Shown here: positions 5,258-59,200 of the stretch, in pieces
Layout: each line of letters opens with the position of its first letter
Position numbering within the stretch: position 1 is the first letter of the stretch
Source: a phage
Direction: 5' to 3' (one strand)
DNA: 64,000 bases
Assembly (NCBI GenBank): GCA_012441205.1
Contig: GCA_012441205.1_4705.1
Made by a program: the position numbers and the translations under genes
The notes under the pieces: model-generated
What the model was told of the DNA's origin: nothing
Seen by the model: the letters and a program-made list of their open reading frames with translations, nothing else
Databases searched by the model: none

Positions 5258-5313
5258 AAGGTAACGTTATACGTCGCCTTCATGACTGTCATCATGAAGG
5301 TAATATAGTCCTG
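5258..5313 (-). promoter_or_regulatory. tandem promoter-like motifs (AAGGTAACGTTATACGTC and AAGGTAATATAGTC on + strand; minus strand reads ...TATATTACCTT)
   Basis: Same motif family recurs at 18418, 30976-31038 and 59181, each just upstream of a minus-strand gene block. Confidence 0.45.
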
Positions 5314-15225: not shown

Positions 15226-15852
15226 ATGGCTGTAACACGCATGACGCCAAGTCCCGGTGCGGTCGGGGTATTCACAGTATCAGCGCCGTTTACCGTTGGT
15301 GCGTCAACGCTATATACCGTTACAGCGTTGCGAAGATTCAGCGAAGTCATCGGTAGTGGAATCGATCTATTTACGGAACTGTACGAACCGTTATCAATAG
15401 ACAAATCCACATTCGAAGCGCATCTCGAAGCGAATGCTTATCTCGTCACGTTGCAACCGGATTACGGTGCACCCGTACTGGTACCTGATACGTATATCAC
15501 GTCGTACCCAAAGAACGATTCATTGCGGTATCGTCGCATTATTCTGGGTATCGATTTCGGGCCTCTTCCTCCCGGTCTTGACCTTTCGTATTTAACAACG
15601 ATATTGAAAGGTAAGGCCAGTGATATTCTTGGTGTCGAACCTGAAGTTAAAACGATGGAAATCACTCTCGATGATACCGTTACTCAGGAACAACATCAGA
15701 TAAACGAAGCCCGTCGTCAGGCCGCGATAAAAGAGCGAGATACCATATACGCACGTTGTGAAACGCAAGAGAAGCAGATAACGGCTTTACTTGCAACCCA
15801 AAAGCAACTTATCAAATTGCTTCAAGACGCCGGTATCAATCCGACACCTTAA
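15226..15852 (+). CDS. hypothetical protein
   Basis: ATG at 15226 preceded by GGAGG; start overlaps stop of upstream gene. Confidence 0.55.
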   Translation: MAVTRMTPSPGAVGVFTVSAPFTVGASTLYTVTALRRFSEVIGSGIDLFTELYEPLSIDKSTFEAHLEANAYLVTLQPDYGAPVLVPDTYITSYPKNDSLRYRRIILGIDFGPLPPGLDLSYLTTILKGKASDILGVEPEVKTMEITLDDTVTQEQHQINEARRQAAIKERDTIYARCETQEKQITALLATQKQLIKLLQDAGINPTP

Positions 15853-15858
15853 CATATT

Positions 15859-15890
15859 CCCTCCTCCTTCCCTGTTGGGTTGGAGGAGGG
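15859..15890. terminator. nested hairpin element (reverse orientation) between convergent genes
   Basis: CCCTCCTCC-ttCCCtgttGGGtt-GGAGGAGGG; reverse complement is nearly identical to the copy at 43673. Confidence 0.55.
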
Positions 15891-15904
15891 TTATGCTGTC
15901 AAGC

Positions 15905-15920
15905 AAAAAAAAAAAAAAAA
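15905..15920. repeat. homopolymeric A16 tract
   Basis: 16 consecutive A between the hairpin and the stop of 15966..16667; reads as U16 on the minus-strand transcript. Confidence 0.8.
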
Positions 15921-15965
15921 TGATAGTCACAGGCTCTCCAATGAAGGAGAGCCGTGACCGTCAGT

Positions 15966-16667
15966 TTAAGATGCAGATAATCTCGCGTACTTCTGGCGAA
16001 CATGGTTCTTACGGCGAACTTCGTCGTCCTCGTCGCGCCATTCGAGGTAAGCAACGAATCGACGTAACTGCGCCGCCGTCATCGTTGACGAGCGGTCTTC
16101 TACGTCTAGAACAACGTAACGAACATCACCAACGCCATCGCAATCAACGTAACTGAATACCAAAAGGCCATCGCCGTACTCAACGATGGTAACTTCGAAT
16201 CGTTTATCGAACAAATAAAACAGTTCCGATTCAATGATCATCGGAATGACGCATAAATCAGCACGATTGAGGATTTCCATCATCACCCGTAACGCGCGAG
16301 GAGTATGGCGAGCGAACTGGTCGTTAAAACGTTGTTTCATCGCTTGTTCCACGCCATCTGTTTTTGTTCCAAACCACGGACGTACTACAGATTTCGGTGG
16401 TGTAAGACGAAAGCGATATGCTTGTATAAACAACAGAATATCAGCGACGTTAGGAAATTCTTCCTGGTCTTCGTATATCTTGCGGATAATATCCGGAATC
16501 GTAACCATCAAGTATTTCTTATCGCCTCCCACTTTCTCGAGATTAGCAATATGTCCTTCTACCACAGGCTGGTAAACGAAATTATACCAATGACGGTATC
16601 TTTCAGTACGTTGGTAGTTTGGGATAAAATTAAGAATAATACTCACTGCGCGTTTTAATGGGTTCAT
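15966..16667 (-). CDS. hypothetical protein
   Basis: 233-aa ORF, last gene of the minus-strand block starting at 18392. Confidence 0.55.
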   Translation of the reverse strand: MNPLKRAVSIILNFIPNYQRTERYRHWYNFVYQPVVEGHIANLEKVGGDKKYLMVTIPDIIRKIYEDQEEFPNVADILLFIQAYRFRLTPPKSVVRPWFGTKTDGVEQAMKQRFNDQFARHTPRALRVMMEILNRADLCVIPMIIESELFYLFDKRFEVTIVEYGDGLLVFSYVDCDGVGDVRYVVLDVEDRSSTMTAAQLRRFVAYLEWRDEDDEVRRKNHVRQKYARLSAS

Positions 16668-16681
16668 CGGAAGGATCCTTC

Positions 16682-17095
16682 TTATGTTTTAATATGCACA
16701 TCGTCAATCCCCTCGGTAATCCAGCCGATGGGAAGGACAATCGTTGTTATCCTGTTATGGGTGTAGTGGTTGAGAAAATGGAAATAGTAATTTTTGTTAG
16801 ACTGTTCGATCCGCAGGTCGAGATGCGCGTCTTCAGGTAACCGTAACCAAGCACCGTACAGTTCATTAAACTTACGCTGAATTTTACCGGGGTTCATTGG
16901 AACCCCACGACCACGACGATGTAGCTGACGTAATGATTCAATCAAACACTCAGAGATACCCGTTGTCGTTCCGTTATCGCTTGTATCAATAACGATGAAC
17001 TCTCGTGACCCACGACCGAGATAAAAGCCAGCGACAAAAGCTGCAGCAACAAAAATTATCGTACCGATACCAATATACCAATAGTAAGTATCCAT
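16682..17095 (-). CDS. N-terminally membrane-anchored protein
   Basis: Start MDTYYWYIGIGTIIFVAAAFVAGFYLG (GTGAGG upstream) gives one N-terminal TM helix then a globular domain. Confidence 0.5.
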   Translation of the reverse strand: MDTYYWYIGIGTIIFVAAAFVAGFYLGRGSREFIVIDTSDNGTTTGISECLIESLRQLHRRGRGVPMNPGKIQRKFNELYGAWLRLPEDAHLDLRIEQSNKNYYFHFLNHYTHNRITTIVLPIGWITEGIDDVHIKT

Positions 17096-17106
17096 AACGA
17101 CCTCAC

Positions 17107-17634
17107 TTATACCCAATAGTCGGCAAGCGGTTTTACCTTATTAATGGGCAACTGTACTTTACCGATGTTCTCTACATCCGCATCAGCGTAGAGAACAATT
17201 TTATCACCGTCTCTTTCCCAACGAATAATGAATCGACCAGGAAGAAGATTACTCTGTTCAAGAGACGCAGTAACCTGTTGTGTTAAAACAGACAACCAAG
17301 CAGGCATCAGTGTTGCAACATCTAAGTCATTTGACCATTCAGCGCGTTGCTCCACTGGACGTAACATACGTTCGACGGTGCGTTGAACTGTTGCGGTGAT
17401 ATAGCCTTTATCTTCGTCACTGATTGGATCAGGACGAGACACAAAACGTTCAGCAGGCTTGTGGGTAATATATTCATGCAAATCGATGAGTGGTGTTGTC
17501 ATAGTACTCGCTCCATCAGAATGTAATTGGGTAACCCGTAGGGTTGTCTGCATGCTATTCAGCAGCGCAAAAGCGCCATAAACAACAACGATACCAAGTA
17601 TAGCCAAAACAGAAATCATTAACGTGTATTGCAT
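17107..17634 (-). CDS. N-terminally membrane-anchored protein
   Basis: Start MQYTLMISVLAILGIVVVYGAFALL (GGGGAG upstream); single N-terminal TM helix. Confidence 0.5.
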   Translation of the reverse strand: MQYTLMISVLAILGIVVVYGAFALLNSMQTTLRVTQLHSDGASTMTTPLIDLHEYITHKPAERFVSRPDPISDEDKGYITATVQRTVERMLRPVEQRAEWSNDLDVATLMPAWLSVLTQQVTASLEQSNLLPGRFIIRWERDGDKIVLYADADVENIGKVQLPINKVKPLADYWV

Positions 17635-17682
17635 TGTCATCTCCCCTACATACGCATCTTGAAGATCGGTTAAAAACAACAA

Positions 17683-17732
17683 AAGAAAAAACGATATAAA
17701 GCAAGGTCCTCTGATATCAGAGGACCTTGGAT
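17683..17732 (-). terminator. rho-independent terminator candidate (perfect palindrome plus T-run on minus strand)
   Basis: AGGTCCTCTGA-tat-CAGAGGACCT followed on the minus strand by CGTTTTTTCTTTTGTTGTTT, just after the stop of 17736..18392. Confidence 0.6.
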
Positions 17733-17735
17733 CAA

Positions 17736-18392
17736 TTAGCTTGCAGCTTCTTCATTTGTATCAGGTTTGCTTCCCCCTAACAAACCGTCAAACAGACCCG
17801 TATGTTTCAGGTAGAAGAGAGCGATAGCGCCCATTGCTGCTGCGCTCGTCGCCGTTAACGCAACCCCGGCACGATACTGCCATTTACGGTCAGGCTTTTG
17901 ATCAAGAGCCATACGACGCATGTATTCAGCCTCTGCTTCATTCCGATGAATTTCGGATTCAGCCAAGCGGGCTAAGGTATCGCGGTCAAGGTTATCATAA
18001 CGTACGTTCATGGTGGTTTCCTCTTGTTTGGAAGTTGATTGCTTAGTGGATTCTTGGTCAACAGTCGTTTCAGATGGTTCAAACGGCTGGTTGTTCATTT
18101 TCTGATCTTTATTGGTCATGATAGACTCCTTCGATTTTTGAGACGAAATTGATTTAAACCATCGTGGATGGCGGTATTCAGTTTTACATGTGCAGTTAAG
18201 TTTCTCGTGCAGGAAAGCGTAAAAACGTTTTGCGCCTACACGTAAGGCTTTCAGCATTACCCATCCACGAGCACTCAAACGGTGTAGCTGTTGCGGTATG
18301 TCGAGTTTCCTAGCCAAGCGAAAGTATCTTTCAATCACTTCGATAGGAAACCATTGTTGTTCCACATCGGTGAGACTGAAAGTCTTATCCAT
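17736..18392 (-). CDS. tail-anchored membrane protein (basic N-terminal domain, acidic middle, C-terminal TM helix)
   Basis: C-terminal ALTATSAAAMGAIALFYL hydrophobic segment; first gene after promoter-like motif at 18418. Confidence 0.5.
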   Translation of the reverse strand: MDKTFSLTDVEQQWFPIEVIERYFRLARKLDIPQQLHRLSARGWVMLKALRVGAKRFYAFLHEKLNCTCKTEYRHPRWFKSISSQKSKESIMTNKDQKMNNQPFEPSETTVDQESTKQSTSKQEETTMNVRYDNLDRDTLARLAESEIHRNEAEAEYMRRMALDQKPDRKWQYRAGVALTATSAAAMGAIALFYLKHTGLFDGLLGGSKPDTNEEAAS

Positions 18393-18417
18393 GATTGAAA
18401 TCTCGCTGGCTTACTTC

Positions 18418-18438
18418 ACTTAAGTAATATAGCCGTGA
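18418..18438 (-). promoter_or_regulatory. promoter-like motif (TTAAGTAATATAGCCGTGAAA on + strand; TATATTAC core on minus strand)
   Basis: About 30 bp upstream of minus-strand gene 17736..18392; same family as 5298, 31018, 59181. Confidence 0.45.
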
Positions 18439-18542
18439 AAAATGTTGGATTAAGTTAAATACCGCAACCGCAGCTAATTTTATAGGCTTTTAGCCTAAAC
18501 CAATCATCTTCGGAATCATCATCTTTGAAACAGGAATCTATC

Positions 18543-19364
18543 ATGGAAAAAGTATTTGTTTGTAAGTTGTTTACCAACGGCAATAGCCAACCAATGTATC
18601 TGACCGATCCTGTTCTAGGTAATCGGAACAGTACCGTATTCAAAGAGGCTTTCGAATACGCTAAAAATAAAGCCGTGAGAACACTGACGTCTGATGACTG
18701 TATCAACGGTATCACGTGGGCAGAGTTAATCGGTGATGCCGTTCGACACTTCGTTCGGGATGCGAGAAAACGGGAAATCTGTCTCACGACTATTGTTGTG
18801 CGTGAAAACGCAGAAATTTTATCAAACGTTTTGGTTGATTTTAATGACGTTTGTGTGTTTAATCCAGAGAACACGTTTGAACAATACCTTACTGCCCTGA
18901 ACAACCAGCTCGGTAAAGATATTCATCCCGAATTCGCCAAGTTAACATATCAGTTACTTTTTGACGACGTCGATCCAAATACGAAGATCGATACCAGCTT
19001 ATCGCCCCTGGTAAAGAAATACGGATCGGTTCTCGCTACGGCAACACCCACCACCGATGGTGGTTATGATATCGAATTGGATGATCCATTAAAAGAACAA
19101 GAGCCTACTGGGGTTAGGGCGGTACATCACAACCTCGTCGTTAAATCTGATGGATGCGATGAACATTACGCTATGATAAACGATGAAAACAATTACCGTT
19201 TAAGTCAAGCGATTGGTGTTCTACGCTATACCGAACCCACTGTTGTAGACGATTATACATCGACAACAACGCACACCACGTGTTTCATTTTCATCTATCC
19301 CAATGAAAGTGTGTACATTACCGACTGCTATGGCAATACCGTAGATAGCTTACGTCGTTATTGA
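18543..19364 (+). CDS. hypothetical protein
   Basis: Track ORF from 18525; ATG at 18543 has AGGA 8 nt upstream. Confidence 0.55.
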   Translation: MEKVFVCKLFTNGNSQPMYLTDPVLGNRNSTVFKEAFEYAKNKAVRTLTSDDCINGITWAELIGDAVRHFVRDARKREICLTTIVVRENAEILSNVLVDFNDVCVFNPENTFEQYLTALNNQLGKDIHPEFAKLTYQLLFDDVDPNTKIDTSLSPLVKKYGSVLATATPTTDGGYDIELDDPLKEQEPTGVRAVHHNLVVKSDGCDEHYAMINDENNYRLSQAIGVLRYTEPTVVDDYTSTTTHTTCFIFIYPNESVYITDCYGNTVDSLRRY

Positions 19365-30890: not shown

Positions 30891-31717
30891 TTAAAAAGTT
30901 CCTCTGTTTCACGTTAATTAAACAACGTATTGATTTCTATTTGACAGAATACGAACATCGTACGTATCTATCACTTAGGTAACGCTTACGCGTCGCGTTC
31001 ATGATACCATGCATCATGAAGGTAATATAGCCGTGAAAGGATTTGTGTTAACGCAAGGGTTTTGTTTGTTTTTTAAGAAGGGATGGATTTAGAAGAGGTG
31101 TTTCAAGGAAGGTAAACGAGAATAGGTATTTTGATTTAAGTAAGATGTTATCTGTATCCGTTAGAAGTGTATTGTCTAAGTTATCTTGTTTATCTTAGGT
31201 TTAATCGTTTTTATCTTGGTATGTTTAAGTTGTTTTTATTTAACTGTTAAAATGCTTATCTTCAAAACAATGGATAACATGTGTTTACTACGCTCGTTGA
31301 GTTATAACTCAACGGTAACACATGTCATCTGTGCATTACACTACGTTACATGCTAGTTAAATCGGATAACTCAAAAAAACATTTGTGATACTCTTCTTCA
31401 CGTTGTTCATCAGAGTATCTCGTCTATACTCATTGCATTCGTATACGACATAACCGTTACACGCTAACGCTACGCTTATAGCTTGATAACTCTAAGGATA
31501 AAAACATAAACTCGCTTCGCTCGTTTAGTTTTTCTTTTTCTTAGAGTTATCCTGTTGCTCGTCTCTAAAGGACTTCGCTCCTCCCCCGTCCCCCGAAGGG
31601 GCCGAGGTCGTGGAAATTTTACTTTCCAAATACATTTACAACATCTGTAAACTTTTACTCCAGGTACTTAATCTTATCATTAGAAATTATAAAAGAGAAA
31701 ATAAACACAAACATAAA
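30891..31717. other. AT-rich ORF-free region with direct and inverted repeats (candidate origin / promoter cluster / ncRNA locus)
   Basis: About 830 bp with no ORF of 60 aa or more; five TTATCT(T/G) repeats (31150-31260), GGATAAC/GAGTTATC repeats, palindrome CGTTGAGTTATAACTCAACG; no tRNA-like T-loop seen. Confidence 0.5.
30976..31038 (-). promoter_or_regulatory. tandem promoter-like motifs (TTAGGTAACGCTTACGCGTC and GAAGGTAATATAGCCGTGAAA on + strand)
   Basis: Minus strand reads CACGGCTATATTACCTTC; 90-130 bp upstream of minus gene 30108..30890. Confidence 0.45.
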
Positions 31718-34394: not shown

Positions 34395-36443
34395 TTAAAT
34401 ACCCTTGGTTCCCTTCACGTGATGTGCAATTTCTTCAACCATTGCACGCAGAGCACGAAGTTGTTGGTCATGTTCGTACCAACCACCCAACAGAACCCCG
34501 CTATACACCATGGTGTCAAGACTTAACAGCCCTTTATCTGATACGTTGATCATTTCCGGGAACTGTTCTTGAACACGCTGTGCGATAACACCGATCTTCT
34601 CGACATCAGGATCGTAGTTGTGACGGAAACGGGCAAGTCCGGTATACGCCATTTCACGTAAACGATCACTGAAAGATTCCGGATGATCTTTCAGATAACG
34701 AATGTCATGTTTACTACGTTCATCCGAGCGAATGTAAGCGTTAGGAACATCGATATTGCTGTTGAAGTACAGCGCACTACCACCGCCTGCAGAGTTCCCC
34801 CAATAGAAGCGTGTGATCTCACCGCCACCATTCTCCGTGATGATGACATGTTTACCTAAACGCGTACCGCCACTACCATCAACGAAGACCAGTTTGTTTC
34901 CGCTGTAAGAACCCCAGAACAAACGTGTATCGATGATGTGCGTTGCAGCGAGGCGGGCGTTACGTGGCGTAGAATACACGGTGTTAACATCTTGCTGCGC
35001 TTGCGCATCGGAAGCGATACCATAGTTCTGTACGTTACCTAACCCAACCTGCGCTTTCGTAACCGCGTGTGGGTTATCACGACGGTTAGCGTGAGCGTTA
35101 ACCAGATCACCCGCTAATTTCTGAATTGCCCAGTTGGTAGACTGTGGTGTCATGTAACGGTTAGTTGCAGAACCACCTTGCGCTTCAGCTTGGTTAGCGG
35201 TTGGATAGTTCTCAACGCTTCCCAAACCGACCTGCGCTTTGGTTACTCTGTGTGGGTTGTTCTTGTCAGCGATGTGCGCATTAAGCGGAACTAACGCAAA
35301 GGTCTCAATGGACGCTTTGGTTGTGTTCGGTGCCATTAATCGGTTAGCTGCAACACCGGCACGCGCTTCTTCTTCAGAAGCCATCGGATAGTCTTGCACA
35401 TTCCCTAACCCAACCTGCGCTTTGGTTACTCTGTGTGGGTTGTTGTAATCGGCTTTATGTGCATTAAGTGGAATCAATGCGAACTGTTCAATCGCTGCAA
35501 CAGTGCGTAGCGGCGTCATGAAACGGTTGTTCGCTGTTCCGGCTTTCGCCTCATCATCCGAAGCGGTCGGGAAGTTATCAACGTTCCCAAGGTTAACCTG
35601 TGCTTTGGTGACGCTATGCGGGTTGTCTCGACGGTTAGCGTGAGCGTCGACTAGATCGCCCGCCAGTTTAGCAATCGCCCATCCAACCGTTTGTGCTGTC
35701 ATGTAACGGTCTGGTGCGGTACCGGCTTCTGCCTCCGCCTTGTTGGCAGTAGGATAGTTCTGTACATTACCTAGTCCGACTTGGGCTTTTGTGGTTTCGT
35801 GCGGGTTATCGGTACGGTTAGCATGTGCGTAATGCAGATCGGTCAGATCTTTATCCGCTGCTTGCATGTCTTTGCGTAACTGATCGATTGCCGCCCAGAG
35901 ACGGTTATCGGATGCAGCATCACCGATAAGTATTGCGGCTTTCAGTGAATAGATCGCTAAGCAAAGATGTTCGGTACCGTAGATAGCACTAACGTGGTGG
36001 ATGTGTGGTTCAGGCGGATAAAGTTCCGGTTTGTTCTTGATGTCGTCCCAGTTGATCGGACGATCGTCAAGTTTGAGTTCTTCGATAGCCTGATACAACG
36101 CGTCAATAAGACTTACGTAAACACCACCGATGATACGATAGTCGTTAACTAACGTCCCCTCGATATCATCGTTGATGATGGCGATGGCTGCACAGATTTC
36201 TTTACCAGCGTAAAGCGTAGCGTCCTGATACAAGAAGATGGGTTTGTAATCCACGCCGCGTACCAGTGTCTTACCGGTAAGCTTTTCAGTGATGACCAGA
36301 CTTTCGGTGAAGAACGGTCCGCCATCAAGAGCGTAACATTTGTTCTCGGTTCGTGGAACGGTATGCTCTTCACCAACGATGTGGTTGCTATCGAGCGTGC
36401 CGGTCCAGTCCTCGGGGTACTTCAGGGTAATTGGTGTTGACAT
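34395..36443 (-). CDS. tail fibre protein with five ~45-aa fibre repeats and C-terminal intramolecular chaperone (S74-like) domain
   Basis: Five repeats of NRxDNPHxVTKAQVGLGNVxNY...NRYMT (about 35125-35835); C-terminal SDERSKHDI ... GVIAQRVQEQFPEM ... LRALRAMVEE resembles the autoproteolytic chaperone of endosialidase/T5 pb1-type fibres. Confidence 0.8.
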   Translation of the reverse strand: MSTPITLKYPEDWTGTLDSNHIVGEEHTVPRTENKCYALDGGPFFTESLVITEKLTGKTLVRGVDYKPIFLYQDATLYAGKEICAAIAIINDDIEGTLVNDYRIIGGVYVSLIDALYQAIEELKLDDRPINWDDIKNKPELYPPEPHIHHVSAIYGTEHLCLAIYSLKAAILIGDAASDNRLWAAIDQLRKDMQAADKDLTDLHYAHANRTDNPHETTKAQVGLGNVQNYPTANKAEAEAGTAPDRYMTAQTVGWAIAKLAGDLVDAHANRRDNPHSVTKAQVNLGNVDNFPTASDDEAKAGTANNRFMTPLRTVAAIEQFALIPLNAHKADYNNPHRVTKAQVGLGNVQDYPMASEEEARAGVAANRLMAPNTTKASIETFALVPLNAHIADKNNPHRVTKAQVGLGSVENYPTANQAEAQGGSATNRYMTPQSTNWAIQKLAGDLVNAHANRRDNPHAVTKAQVGLGNVQNYGIASDAQAQQDVNTVYSTPRNARLAATHIIDTRLFWGSYSGNKLVFVDGSGGTRLGKHVIITENGGGEITRFYWGNSAGGGSALYFNSNIDVPNAYIRSDERSKHDIRYLKDHPESFSDRLREMAYTGLARFRHNYDPDVEKIGVIAQRVQEQFPEMINVSDKGLLSLDTMVYSGVLLGGWYEHDQQLRALRAMVEEIAHHVKGTKGI

Positions 36444-40123: not shown

Positions 40124-42277
40124 TTATAACGTTTCGAAGTCGGTTGCTTTGATAACCGCGTTGAAGTTGGCAAGGAATTCCTTAAGCAGTGCTTGGAAGA
40201 CATCACGAAACGCTGTGTTCGTCTGCAAGCTGGTTAAATAATCGTTCTTAAGGTAATCGCTCAGCTTACCGATCTTCTGCATCTTCTCGCCGTCTTGGTT
40301 CTCTCCAGGTTCTTGGCTGTTGATGTTAACCCATTTGATCCCTTCGAGATCACCATCGGCAAGGAAGTTGGCGGGTGTCTCATCGTCGTTCAGGATTTTA
40401 ATCGTATCACTGGATTCAATGCCACCGTAAGCTTCCAGAAGCTGGTTGACTGTTAGCTTATTGGTGTTGATTGAACCATTGACACCATCGATACCGATGC
40501 CTGCACCTGTGATGGATGTCGCCGAAAGATCGATCGGTCCGGTTAACTTACCACCGTTGATCGGTAACGCACCAACTTGCTCAGCGGTGTGTGTATGGTC
40601 AGCTAACGCCGCAAACGCCACGATAGACTTATATGTCGAATACGGCGTCATATACGCTGATTGGTTGGTGTTGTCAGCCGCTTCAGTATCGGTAGCGACA
40701 TTAAAGTTCTGCACGTTGCTGAGACCGACCTGCACCTTCGTTACTTCATGCGGGTTGTTCTTATTGACAACGTGTGCTGCAAAACCATCACCAGCTAAAG
40801 CAGTGATTGCCGCTTTTGTCGCAGCCGGTGTCATATAGCGGTTGGTTGCTTCACCCGTTTGCGCCTCTTCGTCGGAAGCAACAGGATAGTTCTCAACGCT
40901 TCCCAAACCGACCTGAGATTTTGTTACTTGGTGTGGGTTTTCGGTATTCGCAATATGACTACTGAACCCTTGACCCGCCAGTTGCTCGATTGCGTAACGA
41001 ACAAGTATTGGTGTCATGTACTTGTTGTTAACTTGACCATCGATAGCTTCTTGGGTGGTGGCAACCCCGAAGTTTTGCACGCTCCCCAACCCAACTTGAG
41101 ATTTTGTTACCCCATGGGGGTTATTGGTGTTACCGATGTGTTCGGTTACAGTTGGGGTGATTAATGCTGCGATAGCGGCTGCTGTGGTCGCAGGTGTCAT
41201 GTATTTATCGTTAGCAACACCCGCAGCAGCTTCTACGTTAGATGCTAAACCGTAGTTCAATACACTACCCAACCCAACCTGAGCCTTGGTTACCCCATGG
41301 GGGTTGTTCTTGTCTCCGGTATGGGTTGTCAACGAAGCATTAACGTTATCGATACGTGTACTTAAGCCATCGGTGATTGCTTTGATTGCGGCTCGTACAC
41401 CCGCTGGAGTCGTGTACAGATTTGTGGCCGTACCGGTAATAGTTGTATTACTATCGGCTACACCGTAGTTCTCAACGTTTCCGAGTCCGATCTGTGCCTT
41501 GGTCACCTTGTGTGGGTTGTTGTAGTTGCTGATGTGCGCAGCGGCACTATCACCACTCAGGTTAGCGATCATCTTACGTGTCATCGCCAACGTCATGTAC
41601 AGATTTTCACCGATGGTTTCCAGATCGCTCTCGGTCGCCGTTGTGAAGTTCTGCACATTCCCTAACCCAACCTGAGCCTTGGTTACCCCGTGGGGGTTAT
41701 CGCGACGATTCTCGTGCTGCAACAATGCGGTCATTGCTTTATTGAACCCTTCTTCAAGCGGTTCTTTCAATGATTCGATTGCAGCTACCACATCGTCCCA
41801 CGTCATTGTGTCGGTTTCGACATTATGCTGGTGGTTAATTGGCGGGAATACGGAAGGAACGTCGGCAACCTTTTCCCAGAATGTAACGCGAGGGTCGTAA
41901 AGGTTGTTGGCTAAAACGTTAAGAATTTGCTGCTGATCGAGTGTAAACTCACCCCCCAGTGAATAGTAGTTCAGTTGCAACTGTCCACTGAATGCGGTGT
42001 CCAACAGCATGATGGAACCGTATAATTCCAGGCCGGTCAGCGCAGCCATGGCACGGAAGGGGTGAGTGCATAAAAAGTCAACGCCTTCTTCCAGATACGC
42101 GTTTGTTTCAGGGTTATAGATCTTTAACCCATTACGAAAATATGGCGCGTATTTAGGAACGAGAAAGTTAAATCCGGTCCCCGTGGAAGGACGGACAGTG
42201 ACGAGTTCTTCTGGAACCCATGCGCCATCCAAATTCCCCTGCGGGTTATACGGAAGGCGTTTAATTTCATCTGTCAT
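40124..42277 (-). CDS. tail fibre protein with six fibre repeats
   Basis: Six repeats of NPHGVTK(A/S)QVGLG(N/S)V(Q/E)N(F/Y) (about 40867-41710); N-terminal domain resembles that of 34395..36443. Confidence 0.8.
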   Translation of the reverse strand: MTDEIKRLPYNPQGNLDGAWVPEELVTVRPSTGTGFNFLVPKYAPYFRNGLKIYNPETNAYLEEGVDFLCTHPFRAMAALTGLELYGSIMLLDTAFSGQLQLNYYSLGGEFTLDQQQILNVLANNLYDPRVTFWEKVADVPSVFPPINHQHNVETDTMTWDDVVAAIESLKEPLEEGFNKAMTALLQHENRRDNPHGVTKAQVGLGNVQNFTTATESDLETIGENLYMTLAMTRKMIANLSGDSAAAHISNYNNPHKVTKAQIGLGNVENYGVADSNTTITGTATNLYTTPAGVRAAIKAITDGLSTRIDNVNASLTTHTGDKNNPHGVTKAQVGLGSVLNYGLASNVEAAAGVANDKYMTPATTAAAIAALITPTVTEHIGNTNNPHGVTKSQVGLGSVQNFGVATTQEAIDGQVNNKYMTPILVRYAIEQLAGQGFSSHIANTENPHQVTKSQVGLGSVENYPVASDEEAQTGEATNRYMTPAATKAAITALAGDGFAAHVVNKNNPHEVTKVQVGLSNVQNFNVATDTEAADNTNQSAYMTPYSTYKSIVAFAALADHTHTAEQVGALPINGGKLTGPIDLSATSITGAGIGIDGVNGSINTNKLTVNQLLEAYGGIESSDTIKILNDDETPANFLADGDLEGIKWVNINSQEPGENQDGEKMQKIGKLSDYLKNDYLTSLQTNTAFRDVFQALLKEFLANFNAVIKATDFETL

Positions 42278-57589: not shown

Positions 57590-59032
57590 TTACTTTTTCG
57601 ATGACACTTTCTCAAGAATCTTGAAAAAGGTCATACCTATACCGACAACGGCCGCGGTTATGCTCGCAGCGGCTTTCCAAACATCGACGTTACGTTGACG
57701 TCGCGCTTCTTCCGCTTCACGTTGTCTTTTTGCCTCTTCATCACGTCGACGTATCTCAGCAGCAAACTCGTCGTGCTTACGTTTGGATTCTTCGTCTCGA
57801 CGACGAAGTTCAGCGACGAATTCTTCATGTTTGCGTTTAGCCTCGTCGTCACGACGTTTTAAATCAGCTTGATAATCTTCGTGTATTTGTCTACGTAGAT
57901 CATCTTGACGCTTCATTTCGGCTTGGTGTTGTTCCATCCTACGTTTTTGTTCGTCTTTAAGCTGATCGAGTTCGGCTTTATGTTGTTCATCACGCAGCTT
58001 TGCGTCGGCGCGATGCGCCTCATGCATCTGTGCGATAACTGCCTTGTGTTCATCCGCCATACGTCGCATTTCAGCCATCACCCCTTTAAGGGTTTCTTCT
58101 GATGCCTTACGTTCGTAGCTACGTTGGTCGAAATCATTTTTGTAGGCTTCTTTTTGGATGGGGTCGCGCCAATGCAATGCCGATTCACGTGTCGGAAAAA
58201 CATTGTACTTCCACATCTCTTTTTCCAAATCTTCGACCGGTACGAAGATGGAGTCATTATTCCCGAAGGTAACCAACATACCTGGCGCGCCTGCTCCATT
58301 CGTTGGTTTTATTTCGAACGCTTTCCCCAACACGTTAACCCATAAGCTATACGGATTATGAAAGTCGGGCGGCGTCCAATGGATAGTGAGTTGCGTTCCG
58401 AGAATCCGGAAACCCTCTGTTTTTCCCGTCAAGCTCCGCGCGCACGTTGCGATGTAGGGGTGATCAATCCCTTTCGTAACGTGGTCTGCGCTTTTGTATT
58501 CTCCTTTAACTTTTACGATTGCCACGTTGATTTGCGCGACATAAGCGGGTTGATTAAAGTTCAGCGTGTTGAGGTCAATTTGACATATCTCATCCAGCGT
58601 ATCGTACCAGTCTTGCTGGTCTAATAGACGCGGCATTTTCTCAGCGTTAACAATACGACGGATATGCGGTTTCCTTATCGCGTAACCTGTACCGTTTTTA
58701 ACACGGAGTATATCCCGACGTCTACCCGCGTAGACGAAGTTTCTGAATGCACCATTCGCATTAGATACGTCATGGCTGTCAACTATTACAGGACTACGAA
58801 ATTTTGAACGTCGTACGATCCTGAATGTATTGCCGTCCTCAACCCTACCAGGAATGTACTGGAACATATTGTCGGAGGTGATAACCAACACGGTATGGCC
58901 AGATTCATTAATACATGCCCATCCTAATTCCAGGTCATATAACGGTTCAGCATAACCGTCAATGCGATAAGCGTGCGTACCATCCCACGGTTCGAACGCG
59001 GTATCACATATTGGCATGGAGGGCATCGTCAA
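57590..59032 (-). CDS. tail-anchored protein: globular N-domain, K/R/E/D-rich coiled-coil with tandem repeats, C-terminal TM helix
   Basis: Repeats KRRDDEAKRKHEEFVAELRRRDEESKRKHDEFAAEIRRRDEEAKRQ then AAASITAAVVGIGMTFFKIL at the C-terminus. Confidence 0.6.
   Translation of the reverse strand: MTMPSMPICDTAFEPWDGTHAYRIDGYAEPLYDLELGWACINESGHTVLVITSDNMFQYIPGRVEDGNTFRIVRRSKFRSPVIVDSHDVSNANGAFRNFVYAGRRRDILRVKNGTGYAIRKPHIRRIVNAEKMPRLLDQQDWYDTLDEICQIDLNTLNFNQPAYVAQINVAIVKVKGEYKSADHVTKGIDHPYIATCARSLTGKTEGFRILGTQLTIHWTPPDFHNPYSLWVNVLGKAFEIKPTNGAGAPGMLVTFGNNDSIFVPVEDLEKEMWKYNVFPTRESALHWRDPIQKEAYKNDFDQRSYERKASEETLKGVMAEMRRMADEHKAVIAQMHEAHRADAKLRDEQHKAELDQLKDEQKRRMEQHQAEMKRQDDLRRQIHEDYQADLKRRDDEAKRKHEEFVAELRRRDEESKRKHDEFAAEIRRRDEEAKRQREAEEARRQRNVDVWKAAASITAAVVGIGMTFFKILEKVSSKK
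57710..57880 (-). repeat. in-frame ~54-bp tandem repeat inside CDS 57590..59032
   Basis: DNA repeats encode the ~18-aa RRRDEE(S/A)KRKH(D/E)EF(V/A)AE(L/I) unit about 2.5 times. Confidence 0.5.
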
Positions 59033-59180: not shown

Positions 59181-59200
59181 TAGGTAATGTAAGCGTCAAA
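59181..59200 (-). promoter_or_regulatory. promoter-like motif (TAGGTAATGTAAGCGTCAAA on + strand)
   Basis: Same family as 5258, 18418 and 30976; about 150 bp upstream of minus gene 57590..59032 and downstream of the hairpin that follows the 740-aa gene. Confidence 0.4.

Follow-up and report, generated by a model that had tools for sequence, protein, structure and literature searches.

The window, that is, the whole 64-kb stretch of phage DNA analyzed, is approximately 97% identical to Escherichia phage Goslar (Chimalliviridae), a nucleus-forming jumbo phage of E. coli. Four open reading frames (ORFs) on its minus strand correspond to Goslar gp004, gp003, gp002, and gp001, and these are listed in Table 1 with their flanking and internal elements. 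The ORFs, transmembrane (TM) segments, hairpin, and promoter-like motif described in an earlier sequence-only reading were all found on this strand, in place or a few bases away. Each of the four genes is under purifying selection (dN/dS of 0.02 to 0.27), and gene order and gene lengths are retained in diverged Goslar-like contigs. The gp004 to gp001 region is a single early transcription unit of a Goslar-like chimallivirus. No Rfam RNA family was matched in the window, and no mention of Goslar gp1 to gp4 was found in the papers searched.

Table 1. Features of the gp004 to gp001 transcription unit, in order of transcription (coordinates are those of the window)
Feature	Coordinates	Strand	Description
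Early (virion RNA polymerase type) promoter element CCAACATTTTTCACGGCTATATTAC	18424..18448	-	25 nt, with core TATATTAC at 18424-18431
gp004 homologue, 218 aa, 25.3 kDa	17736..18392	-	ORF and Goslar identity
gp004 candidate internal in-frame start 1	18117..18131	-	AAGGAG (18126-18131), 6 nt, ATG (18117-18119), M92
gp004 candidate internal in-frame start 2	18009..18024	-	AGAGGA (18019-18024), 7 nt, ATG (18009-18011), M128
Intra-operon leaky terminator/attenuator	17672..17729	-	12-bp GC-rich stem and 4-nt loop (17702-17729), then interrupted T tract
gp003 homologue, 175 aa, 19.8 kDa	17107..17634	-	N-terminal TM at aa 5-25 (nt 17560-17622), then domain of ~145 aa
gp002 homologue, 137 aa, 15.8 kDa	16682..17095	-	N-terminal TM at aa 8-26 (nt 17018-17074), then domain of ~105 aa
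gp001 homologue, 233 aa, 27.6 kDa, soluble	15966..16667	-	ORF and Goslar identity
Operon-end intrinsic terminator	15905..15959	-	Hairpin (15925-15959), then T16 (15905-15920)

The 25-nt promoter element is invariant across five diverged Goslar-like genomes, with flanks that vary, and its core TATATTAC is one that we take to match the phiKZ early consensus. The sequence-only reading had placed a promoter-like motif at 18418; the motif was confirmed, with its core a few bases upstream, and 18418 itself falls where the transcript is expected to start (predicted at approximately 18415 to 18420). The bare 8-mer is present six times in the window versus 2.0 expected, a count reached in 4 of 100 shuffles and thus not significant alone. 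The extended motif and the positions it occupies depart strongly from chance expectation. Three further places in the window (5300, 31022, and 59184) hold related copies, and an early gene block follows each of them; all 4 sites in the window, as well as all 13 in Goslar, are oriented toward downstream genes. In the Goslar genome, the 13 sites matching the extended consensus, derived here as approximately TTTCACGGCTAyATTACyTnnGTGA, without exception lie just upstream of genes insensitive to ChmA knockdown and on the coding strand, and the chmA and picA operons are among those preceded by such a site. No published description of this consensus or of its 13 sites was found, and a full-text literature search with the bare motif string returned irrelevant papers only. 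A review of phiKZ-like jumbo phages describes a conserved AT-rich element, approximately 10 nt long, that precedes the start of early operons by approximately 10 nt. The unit resembles the phiKZ-like early units read by the virion RNA polymerase in its AT-rich upstream element, its hairpin terminators, and its independence from the nucleus and the non-virion polymerase, and differs from the published phiKZ-like descriptions in the extended consensus and the 13 sites that carry it.

Expression data agree with this assignment. In published RNA-seq of Goslar, a phage 97% identical to that of the window, blocking nucleus formation gave log2 fold changes of +0.2 to +1.3 for gp001 to gp004, compared with -3 to -7 for the neighboring genes gp005 to gp013; the flanking genes were reduced 30- to 100-fold. 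Genes behind the other Goslar motif sites had log2 fold changes of approximately 0 to +1.3 in the ChmA knockdown, with genes at -3 to -7 beside them. The promoter had been called early type from its sequence, and this was borne out by the 13 early-unit starts in Goslar together with the RNA-seq values for gp001 to gp004.

The hairpin that follows gp004 has a predicted ΔG of -24.1 kcal/mol (z = -5.75), a stability equaled by none of 200 shuffled sequences, and is invariant in five Goslar-like genomes; the Goslar record carries a terminator annotation at the same place. A strong stem followed by an interrupted T tract (17672 to 17701) is consistent with partial read-through. From the published Goslar table, the read density of the downstream genes relative to gp004 was computed as 0.62 to 0.71 in control cells and 0.32 to 0.42 in nucleus-blocked cells. 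The proposal of a terminator or attenuator at this position therefore held, given a stable, conserved hairpin beyond which read density falls to 0.32 to 0.71 of that of gp004. Our reading is that gp004 RNA is approximately 1.5 to 3 times as abundant as RNA of the downstream genes because a share of transcripts stops at the leaky terminator, but RNA stability or an additional promoter could instead account for the density ratios. At the end of the operon, a second hairpin (ΔG of -28.4, z = -6.0) is conserved across genomes, where changes are confined to one arm (G-C to G-U) or introduce a mispair, and no true covariation was detected among the genomes compared. This operon-end terminator was not part of the sequence-only reading.

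Hydrophobic segments were assessed by the Kyte-Doolittle mean over 19 residues (KD19) and by summed energy on a Hessa-type scale. By both measures the single N-terminal anchors that had been predicted for gp003 (aa 5 to 25; KD19 of 2.67, energy of -2.9) and gp002 (aa 8 to 26; KD19 of 2.24, energy of -0.8) are clear. In each protein, a hydrophobic helix no shorter than 19 residues lies at the N terminus and is flanked on its C-terminal side by basic residues, as is characteristic of signal anchors. In gp003, gp002, and their homologues on a distant metagenomic contig (L010), no Lys or Arg residues precede the helix and one to three follow it; a partial gp003-like ORF on a second distant contig (L009) has none before and one after. 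The topology of gp002 is predicted to be N terminus out and C terminus in. That of gp003 is ambiguous in the Goslar type, as a single Arg follows the TM segment and signal peptidase might cleave at an A-F-A triplet. The conserved start of gp003 is an ATG with a GGAG Shine-Dalgarno (SD) sequence 7 nt upstream, and the domain of gp002 carries the conserved motifs IQR[KR]FN and W..EGID. The two proteins share no cross-similarity, ruling them out as paralogues. For gp001, the expectation of a soluble protein was upheld, as no TM segment was detected (maximum KD19 of 1.26, energy of +8). Among the four genes of the block it evolves fastest, and its AF2 model (pLDDT of 61) yielded no significant fold match.

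The architecture of gp004 consists of a conserved helical N-terminal domain (aa 1 to 80, pI of 10), a variable disordered linker, a helix at approximately aa 137 to 164, a hydrophobic segment at aa 177 to 195 (nt 17808 to 17864), and an acidic tail of 23 residues; its structure model has a pLDDT of 38, so that only the secondary structure is usable. The quality of the gp004 and gp001 models was too low for a fold hypothesis to be judged from them. Two distant homologues, P0039 and P0040, share this architecture. With the hydrophobic segment at aa 177 to 195 of 218, its position is that of a tail anchor, and gp004 is predicted to be tail anchored with a cytoplasmic N terminus. The hydrophobicity of the segment is marginal, however, with KD19 values of 1.76, 1.82, and 1.12 and summed energies of +1.0, +2.3, and +3.2 in gp004, P0039, and P0040, respectively, and it could instead be a peripheral or oligomerization helix. 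The description of the block as encoding three membrane-anchored proteins is thus sound for the TM helices of gp003 and gp002 and weaker for the tail anchor of gp004. A role for gp004 as a nucleic acid-binding membrane tether was considered and rejected, as the basic charge of the N-terminal domain is seemingly not shared by P0039, the sequence of which appears acidic by eye.

Within gp004, SD sequences followed by an in-frame ATG are unusually frequent, with 3 in its 218 codons versus 4 in the 19,383 codons of 59 other genes. Initiation at M92 would yield a predicted 127-aa (14.3-kDa) tail-anchored form without the N-terminal domain, and the SKExxM motif at this residue is conserved within the otherwise variable linker; L009 has TAAGGAA and an ATG at the equivalent place. 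Initiation at M128 would yield a predicted 91-aa form (10.1 kDa), and the L010 homologue carries AGAGGA and an ATG (M129) at the aligned KEETTM position. These conserved internal ribosome-binding sites suggest that gp004 is also produced as nested short isoforms. In-frame internal ribosome-binding sites with an ATG, giving a shorter product with a common C terminus, are likewise found in lambda S105/S107, T7 gp4A/4B, and phiX174 A/A*. The gp004 forms differ from these in that they are predicted only and would be without the whole N-terminal domain, keeping the coiled coil and anchor. The alternative starts, along with a TM segment rich in small residues and followed by a charged tail, also fit a dual-start membrane protein that acts with its short forms as a holin/antiholin device for timing lysis. 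We consider this highly improbable. The alternative starts lie 91 and 127 codons from the main start, compared with 2 to 3 in lambda S, and the endolysins are far off (gp024 at more than 15 kb and gp098 at approximately 100 kb). Moreover, gp004 has an early promoter and is nucleus independent, whereas the annotated endolysin gp024 was down approximately 30-fold in nucleus-blocked cells, and a holin-like function is largely refuted by this early timing.

Homologues of the four proteins were sought in a range of databases. Using tblastn with gp004, gp001, and gp002 against 50,697 phage records, only Goslar was identified, with no match in any other chimallivirus. Searches of large protein collections with gp004, gp001, and gp003 recovered close Goslar-like relatives only, plus two metagenomic contigs for gp004, while scans of IMG/VR, metagenomes, and genomes returned Goslar-like contigs and one spurious TM match. 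No match with an E value below 0.01 was found for the four proteins in Pfam, PHROGs, NCBIfam, or PADLOC, nor any credible match for the distant homologues, and single-sequence and profile searches of the PDB returned nothing below an E value of 0.05. Family-wide homologues, as expected of genes in the Chimalliviridae core genome, were thus not found for gp004 to gp001 in these searches, nor was any homologue with a known function or structure. JADA, an activator of the Avs5 defense system, was considered as a relative and discarded, being described as a different, essential early protein.

The two metagenomic contigs, L009 and L010 (1.7 and 2.3 kb; samples ERZ1524542 and SRR23967707), encode proteins of approximately 25% identity in the same layout. 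In L010 the order of gp004-like gene, hairpin, gp003-like gene, and gp002-like gene is retained, with full-length homologues of gp003 (24 to 26% identity, also with an N-terminal TM segment) and gp002 (28 to 29% identity), and an unrelated 173-aa protein occupies the place of gp001. The partial L009 retains the first part only, and it carries the early-promoter motif, as GGGCTATATTACTTAA, upstream of its gp004-like gene. Both contigs have a hairpin followed by T7 to T8 at the position equivalent to the intra-operon terminator, although the sequence is unrelated. Beyond the Goslar type, one full distant contig and a second, partial one thus show conserved linkage of gp004, gp003, and gp002, and on this comparison the three genes constitute a conserved membrane module, as judged from sequence, to which gp001 is an add-on that lies outside it.

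Early regions of jumbo phages are rich in unrelated hypothetical genes, and the block could accordingly be read as four unrelated, adjacent early ORFans with no joint function, in which the hydrophobic segments, or at least the marginal one of gp004, are not anchors; the clear exchangeability of gp001 is in keeping with this. We regard it as quite improbable. Gene order is kept at approximately 25% protein identity in L010 and in part in L009, and the TM helices of gp003 and gp002 are unambiguous. In addition, approximately 12 of 60 genes examined were flagged as having a TM-like segment, three of them being the adjacent gp004, gp003, and gp002, and such adjacency is unlikely to have arisen by chance.

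The account that we favor, and hold to be somewhat probable as a whole, is that of an early unit with a leaky terminator that encodes a membrane-tethered platform with a lineage-specific accessory role. The virion RNA polymerase would start at the conserved promoter (approximately 18424 to 18448), the same motif being present at the Goslar chmA and picA operons, and would transcribe gp004 first. Part of the transcripts would end at 17702 to 17729, and the remainder would run through gp003, gp002, and gp001 to the hairpin and T16 of the operon-end terminator. gp004 would insert posttranslationally by its tail anchor, a weakly hydrophobic segment with many small residues, so that the conserved N-terminal domain stays in the cytoplasm, and may also be made from the internal starts as anchor-only forms of 14 and 10 kDa. 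For gp003 and gp002, insertion would leave the N terminus outside and the C terminus inside. Within minutes after infection, the three proteins would form a platform tethered to the inner membrane, or to a membrane derived from it, on the cytoplasmic side; physical association among them is inferred from their conserved linkage. The role of gp004 to gp002 is placed as lineage specific and accessory because the module is missing from other chimalliviruses, and it may be aimed at the host or at competitors, for example through the capture or inhibition of a host factor close to the membrane or of a second infecting phage. Their distribution argues for gp004 to gp002 being neither part of a universal vesicle-to-nucleus pathway nor core compartment machinery. 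If the genes are dispensable accessories, as this distribution suggests, the result is an ordinary one.

A rival account is superinfection exclusion, in which early membrane proteins alter the inner membrane such that a second Goslar-like or related phage is blocked from genome delivery or vesicle setup, as with T4 Imm and Sp. Early expression of gp001 to gp004, the predicted membrane location of gp004 to gp002, and a non-core, lineage-restricted spread typical of exclusion genes are all compatible with this, and exclusion would be useful to Goslar-like phages, which are mostly met as persistent infections of bacterial isolates. The gp003 domain could, moreover, be periplasmic if its TM segment serves as a signal anchor or belongs to a signal peptide that is removed. 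Like Imm and Sp, the proteins are small, early, predicted to be in the inner membrane, lineage restricted, and non-essential looking. However, gp004 to gp002 have no sequence relationship to T4 Imm or Sp, nor similarity to other known exclusion proteins or to models in Pfam, PHROG, and PADLOC; they are three proteins of 137 to 218 aa, and predictions place most of gp004 and gp002, and probably of gp003, in the cytoplasm, unlike Sp. Chimalliviruses, identical phages included, are also reported in a review to coinfect with separate nuclei, and multiple vesicles occur at high multiplicity of infection. Superinfection exclusion by gp004 to gp002 is possible but not specifically supported, and we consider it unlikely.

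Nucleus-forming phages start infection inside a lipid vesicle, a recent finding, and we know of no phage-encoded membrane protein that has been tied to the vesicle stage. Current work in the field seeks the factors that give this membrane its shape, pass RNA and the genome through it, and handle competitors. Roles for gp004 to gp002 in DNA entry and in forming the early compartment are disfavored by timing and distribution, because the infection vesicle is, according to published work, present before any phage gene is expressed, and because no homologue was found in other chimalliviruses among the 50,697 phage records. A later role is also conceivable, in which the proteins reside in the vesicle membrane and tether ribosomes or the nascent chimallin shell, or open the vesicle for genome release. 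In line with this are the promoter type shared with the chmA and picA operons and the membrane anchors with domains predicted to face the cytoplasm; genome transfer and vesicle channels are, moreover, published as open questions of the field, with no known phage membrane factor. Nevertheless, we think such a role distinctly unlikely, since the vesicle and nucleus are family wide and the genes are absent from other chimalliviruses in the 50,697 phage records and in IMG/VR, and since vesicle formation and mRNA export precede any new protein. Furthermore, where the text of the Goslar virion paper discusses virion proteins, it does not name gp004 to gp001. In its boldest form, which we view as improbable, gp004, gp003, and gp002 would be the first phage-encoded membrane components of the early infection vesicle of chimalliviruses, forming a cytoplasm-facing complex that docks it to the chimallin shell or ribosomes or opens it for genome hand-off, with anchor-only gp004 isoforms tuning the activity and other chimalliviruses using analogues unrecognizable by sequence.

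Among the nearest known counterparts are phiKZ gp16, gp22, gp238, and gp280, which are rapidly made early proteins reported with the injected gp93 complex, with apparent recruitment of gp16 and gp280 to the early infection vesicle. The Goslar-type proteins resemble these as rapidly made chimallivirus early proteins and differ in that tblastn and HMM searches detected no homology between them and gp004 to gp001. The word "transmembrane" is absent from the text of the phiKZ gp93 paper, no anchor is reported for the four phiKZ proteins, and, to date, the membrane proteins reported at the vesicle come from the host.

No new mechanism is demonstrated here; the operon supplies testable candidates for early host-membrane factors. 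RNA-targeting knockdown (CRISPRi-ART) already works in the E. coli system of Goslar, a model phage in which gp004, gp003, and gp002 are three coregulated, evolutionarily linked membrane candidates. The Goslar-type early-promoter consensus is now usable, with 13 sites that include those of the chmA and picA operons. The terminator behind gp004 offers a case in which leaky termination controls dose, and the nested isoforms of gp004 are a testable prediction.

Megablast comparison of window positions 15800-18700 returned 97% identity to Escherichia phage vB_EcoM_Goslar (MK327938/NC_048170), a nucleus-forming jumbo phage of the Chimalliviridae, which makes the window phage closely related to Goslar. 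Position 1 of the Goslar record lies at window position 15866, and the window crosses the arbitrary ends of that linear record at 15865/15866. Sequenced Goslar-like phages comprise one phage isolate and approximately 59 "persistent" phages within bacterial assemblies, in agreement with which some homologues bear the source names Shigella and Salmonella. The four minus-strand ORFs of the operon, whose coordinates in the sequence-only reading were confirmed, correspond to Goslar gp004, gp003, gp002, and gp001, all annotated as hypothetical proteins. Three diverged Goslar-like contigs (L002, L004, and L006) have the same gene order, although gp001 identity falls to 68%; gp004, gp003, and gp002 are 218, 175, and 137 aa in these contigs, and gp001 is 231 to 233 aa. 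Pairwise dN/dS values for all four genes ranged from 0.02 to 0.27, and gp001 to gp004 are real protein-coding genes. In the window, gp187 (plus strand) and gp001 (minus strand) are convergent neighbors with only their terminators between them.

An early-type promoter had been proposed upstream of gp004. By itself, TATATTAC was not significantly enriched within the window. It is contained in a 25-nt element, CCAACATTTTTCACGGCTATATTAC, that is invariant across five genomes and has variable flanks. The entire Goslar genome was assembled and scanned for the motif; TA[TC]ATTAC occurs 23 times, with 13 of these sites sharing an extended consensus (approximately TTTCACGGCTAyATTACyTnnGTGA). Each of the 13 lies on the coding strand, with a minus-strand gene or block of genes directly 3' of it. 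In published Goslar RNA-seq data comparing ChmA-knockdown with control cells (Armbruster et al., bioRxiv 10.1101/2023.09.20.558163, Supplementary Table 2), genes following 12 of the 13 sites had log2 fold changes of approximately 0 to +1.3, while the gene beyond each promoter, where part of another unit, had values of −3 to −7. The thirteenth site precedes chmA, which is transcribed at similar levels according to the same preprint. Values for gp001 to gp004 were +0.2 to +1.3, and those for gp005 to gp013 were −3 to −7. The knockdown transcriptome matches that of early wild-type infection (r > 0.93), and transcription under knockdown is that of the virion RNA polymerase (vRNAP) within the early infection vesicle (bioRxiv 10.1101/2023.09.20.558163). 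A review of jumbo-phage polymerases describes an AT-rich motif particular to each phage, approximately 10 nt long and centered near −10 of early operons. Promoter placement and the knockdown data thus make the early-type promoter well supported, directly for Goslar and, through 97% identity and an identical promoter, for the window phage. No published description of a Goslar-type early promoter consensus was found. Directly after two other early promoters, an inverted repeat is present at the transcript 5' end (5270-5299 and 30990-31021, minus strand; CTTCATGATGACAGTCATGAAG and TTCATGATGCATGGTATCATGAA); the gp004 promoter has no such repeat.

Features of the operon and related sites (window positions unless Goslar is stated)
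Feature	Coordinates	Strand	Details
gp004	17736-18392	-	
gp003	17107-17634	-	
gp002	16682-17095	-	
gp001	15966-16667	-	
Extended early promoter element	18424-18448	-	25 nt, contains TATATTAC
Related promoter copies	5300-5311, 31022-31051, 59184-59195	-	motif matches in window
Goslar extended-consensus sites	2567, 15067, 43266, 49732, 86705, 113797, 142800, 160791, 166069, 172978, 187639, 201944, 226695	-	genome scan
Genes 3' of Goslar sites			gp004, gp021, gp040, gp047/046, gp075, gp105, gp159, gp175 (picA operon), gp182, gp246 (chmA), gp225, gp214, gp200
Intra-operon hairpin	17702-17729	-	12-bp stem, dG -24.1 kcal/mol, z = -5.75
Operon-end canonical terminator	hairpin 15925-15959 + T16	-	
gp004 internal in-frame start M92	within 18009-18131	-	AAGGAG-N6-ATG
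gp004 internal in-frame start M128	within 18009-18131	-	AGAGGA-N7-ATG
gp004 internal in-frame start M158		-	weaker ribosome-binding site
CCTCC..CCCGTAAGGG..GGAGG hairpins at gene ends	11221, 15866-15900, 20011, 27103, 31715, 43670, 52770		

The stable hairpin between gp004 and gp003, read earlier as a terminator or attenuator, coincides with a putative terminator already marked in the Goslar record. The T tract of this hairpin is interrupted (CTTTATATCGTTTTTT), in contrast to that of the operon-end terminator, which the sequence-only reading had overlooked. In the Goslar RNA-seq table, gp003, gp002, and gp001 had 0.62 to 0.71 of the per-nucleotide read density of gp004 in control cells and 0.32 to 0.42 in knockdown cells, consistent with a terminator that halts between about one-third and two-thirds of transcripts; differences in RNA stability, or a second promoter past the hairpin, could add to this ratio. 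The repeated CCTCC..GGAGG hairpins resemble a conserved terminator motif, which may act in both directions; the gp001 terminator has one copy back to back with it.

Word-indexed searches in which gp004, gp001, and gp003 were queried against a large protein collection found nothing beyond close, Goslar-like relatives. Using an exhaustive profile search with gp004, two distant homologues were identified, P0039 (280 aa, E = 2e-9) and P0040 (224 aa, E = 7e-8), encoded on the short metagenomic contigs L009 and L010. Both share the layout of gp004, in which a conserved helical domain (LT..E..WF ... R.S.RG..M ... LH.KL ... PRWF) is followed by a variable linker and then by a long helix. The C-terminal part consists of a hydrophobic segment, small-residue-rich in both, and a short acidic tail. 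L009 carries GGGCTATATTACTTAA 5' of the gp004-like gene and a hairpin with T7 3' of it, beyond which an ORF begins that encodes an N-terminal transmembrane (TM) segment. In L010, the gp004-like gene is followed by a hairpin with T8, a gp003-like gene (173 aa, N-terminal TM, 24 to 26% identity over the full length), and a gp002-like gene (148 aa, N-terminal TM, 28 to 29% identity). The order of tail-anchored protein, terminator, and two N-anchored proteins has therefore been kept across lineages with only about 25% of residues in common; the hairpins occupy the same place and have unrelated sequences. gp001 is exchangeable; an unrelated 173-aa protein occupies its position in L010, and it is the fastest-evolving gene of the block among Goslar-like phages. 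Relative to L006, dS rises steeply across 15966-18392 from 0.19 (gp004) through 0.74 (gp003) and 1.07 (gp002) to 1.78 (gp001). At the nucleotide level, gp004 and its promoter form an island of conservation, and gp001 is hypervariable. The gene 5' of the early promoter in L009 (70-510) encodes a member of the SUKH_5/SMI1-KNR4 family, whose proteins are commonly found as immunity proteins.

Three in-frame internal ribosome-binding sites with an ATG, strong at M92 and M128 and weaker at M158, were found in the 218 codons of gp004 by one fixed rule, compared with four in the 19,383 codons of 59 other Goslar genes; by the same rule, no good ribosome-binding site precedes the annotated start of gp004. 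The peptides encoding the internal sites, SKExxM and EETTM, are conserved islands within the variable linker, and L009 (1127-1147) and L010 (379-401) each have one internal site at the equivalent place. This suggests that anchor-only gp004 isoforms of 14.3 and 10.1 kDa may be produced. With the near-identical window-Goslar pair left aside, dS was 0.08 to 0.22 for gp004, and the same pairs of genomes gave 0.33 to 2.96 for gp001; the internal starts may be part of the reason that no stretch is more conserved than gp004 at the nucleotide level.

Of the three proteins proposed to be membrane anchored, gp003 (aa 5-25; Kyte-Doolittle mean over 19 residues [KD19], 2.67; summed Hessa-type energy, −2.9) and gp002 (aa 8-26; 2.24; −0.8) have unambiguous TM helices, while the gp004 tail segment (aa 177-195 of 218) is marginal (1.76; +1.0). 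A hydrophobicity scan found no TM-like segment in gp001. Only approximately 12 of 60 genes examined reached the same threshold, several of them owing to a segment in the interior of a large protein, and this operon contains three of the clear cases side by side. Lys plus Arg counts in the 12 residues either side of each helix were consistent across lineages: 0 before and 1 to 3 after for gp003 and gp002 (window and L010 forms), with the partial L009 ORF agreeing with gp003, and 4 to 5 before and 1 to 3 after for gp004. The N terminus is therefore predicted to be out and the C terminus in for gp003 and gp002, and the N terminus in for gp004, so that most of all three proteins would face the cytoplasm. 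The weak point is Goslar-type gp003, which has a single Arg, eight residues past the helix, and an A-F-A triplet, missing in L009 and L010, that could be a signal-peptidase site.

Family-library, solved-structure, and fold searches gave no credible match for the operon's proteins, and AF2 models were of poor quality. A tblastn search of 50,697 phage records with gp004, gp001, and gp002 matched only Goslar, placing these genes outside the Chimalliviridae core set, and a literature search found no paper discussing Goslar gp001 to gp004. The operon is an early, vRNAP-type transcription unit with a leaky internal terminator and a strong terminal one, in which three linked genes encode proteins with a hydrophobic helix at one terminus. 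We infer that gp004, gp003, and gp002 would insert in the inner membrane, or in a derivative of that membrane, with their domains in the cytoplasm, and may act jointly, gp004 probably being produced in excess over its partners. As the module is lineage restricted, an accessory role is favored, which would be directed at the host or competitors from the cytoplasmic face of the membrane. Superinfection exclusion, as suggested earlier, and vesicle-to-nucleus hand-off are its rivals. Vesicle formation and DNA entry precede any phage gene expression, making the other two earlier suggestions, early compartment formation and DNA entry, unlikely. The sequence-only description is accurate and its "early" and "membrane" labels hold up; its functional suggestions are unproven. 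The unit is of an ordinary kind, a jumbo-phage early operon that encodes small accessory proteins and belongs to a known lineage; what it adds is a conserved membrane module of three proteins, together with some detail on regulation.

Elsewhere in the window, the gp040 homologue (57590-59032, minus strand), the first gene of another early block and without a Pfam match, encodes a small-residue-rich hydrophobic segment, AASITAAVVGIGMTFFKIL, 7 residues from the C terminus (KD19, 1.76), that resembles the gp004 anchor. Tandem 183-nt (61-codon) repeats of 60 to 80% identity are present at 35006-35864 and 40687-41716, inside two large virion or tail-fiber-like genes homologous to Goslar gp025 and gp029.
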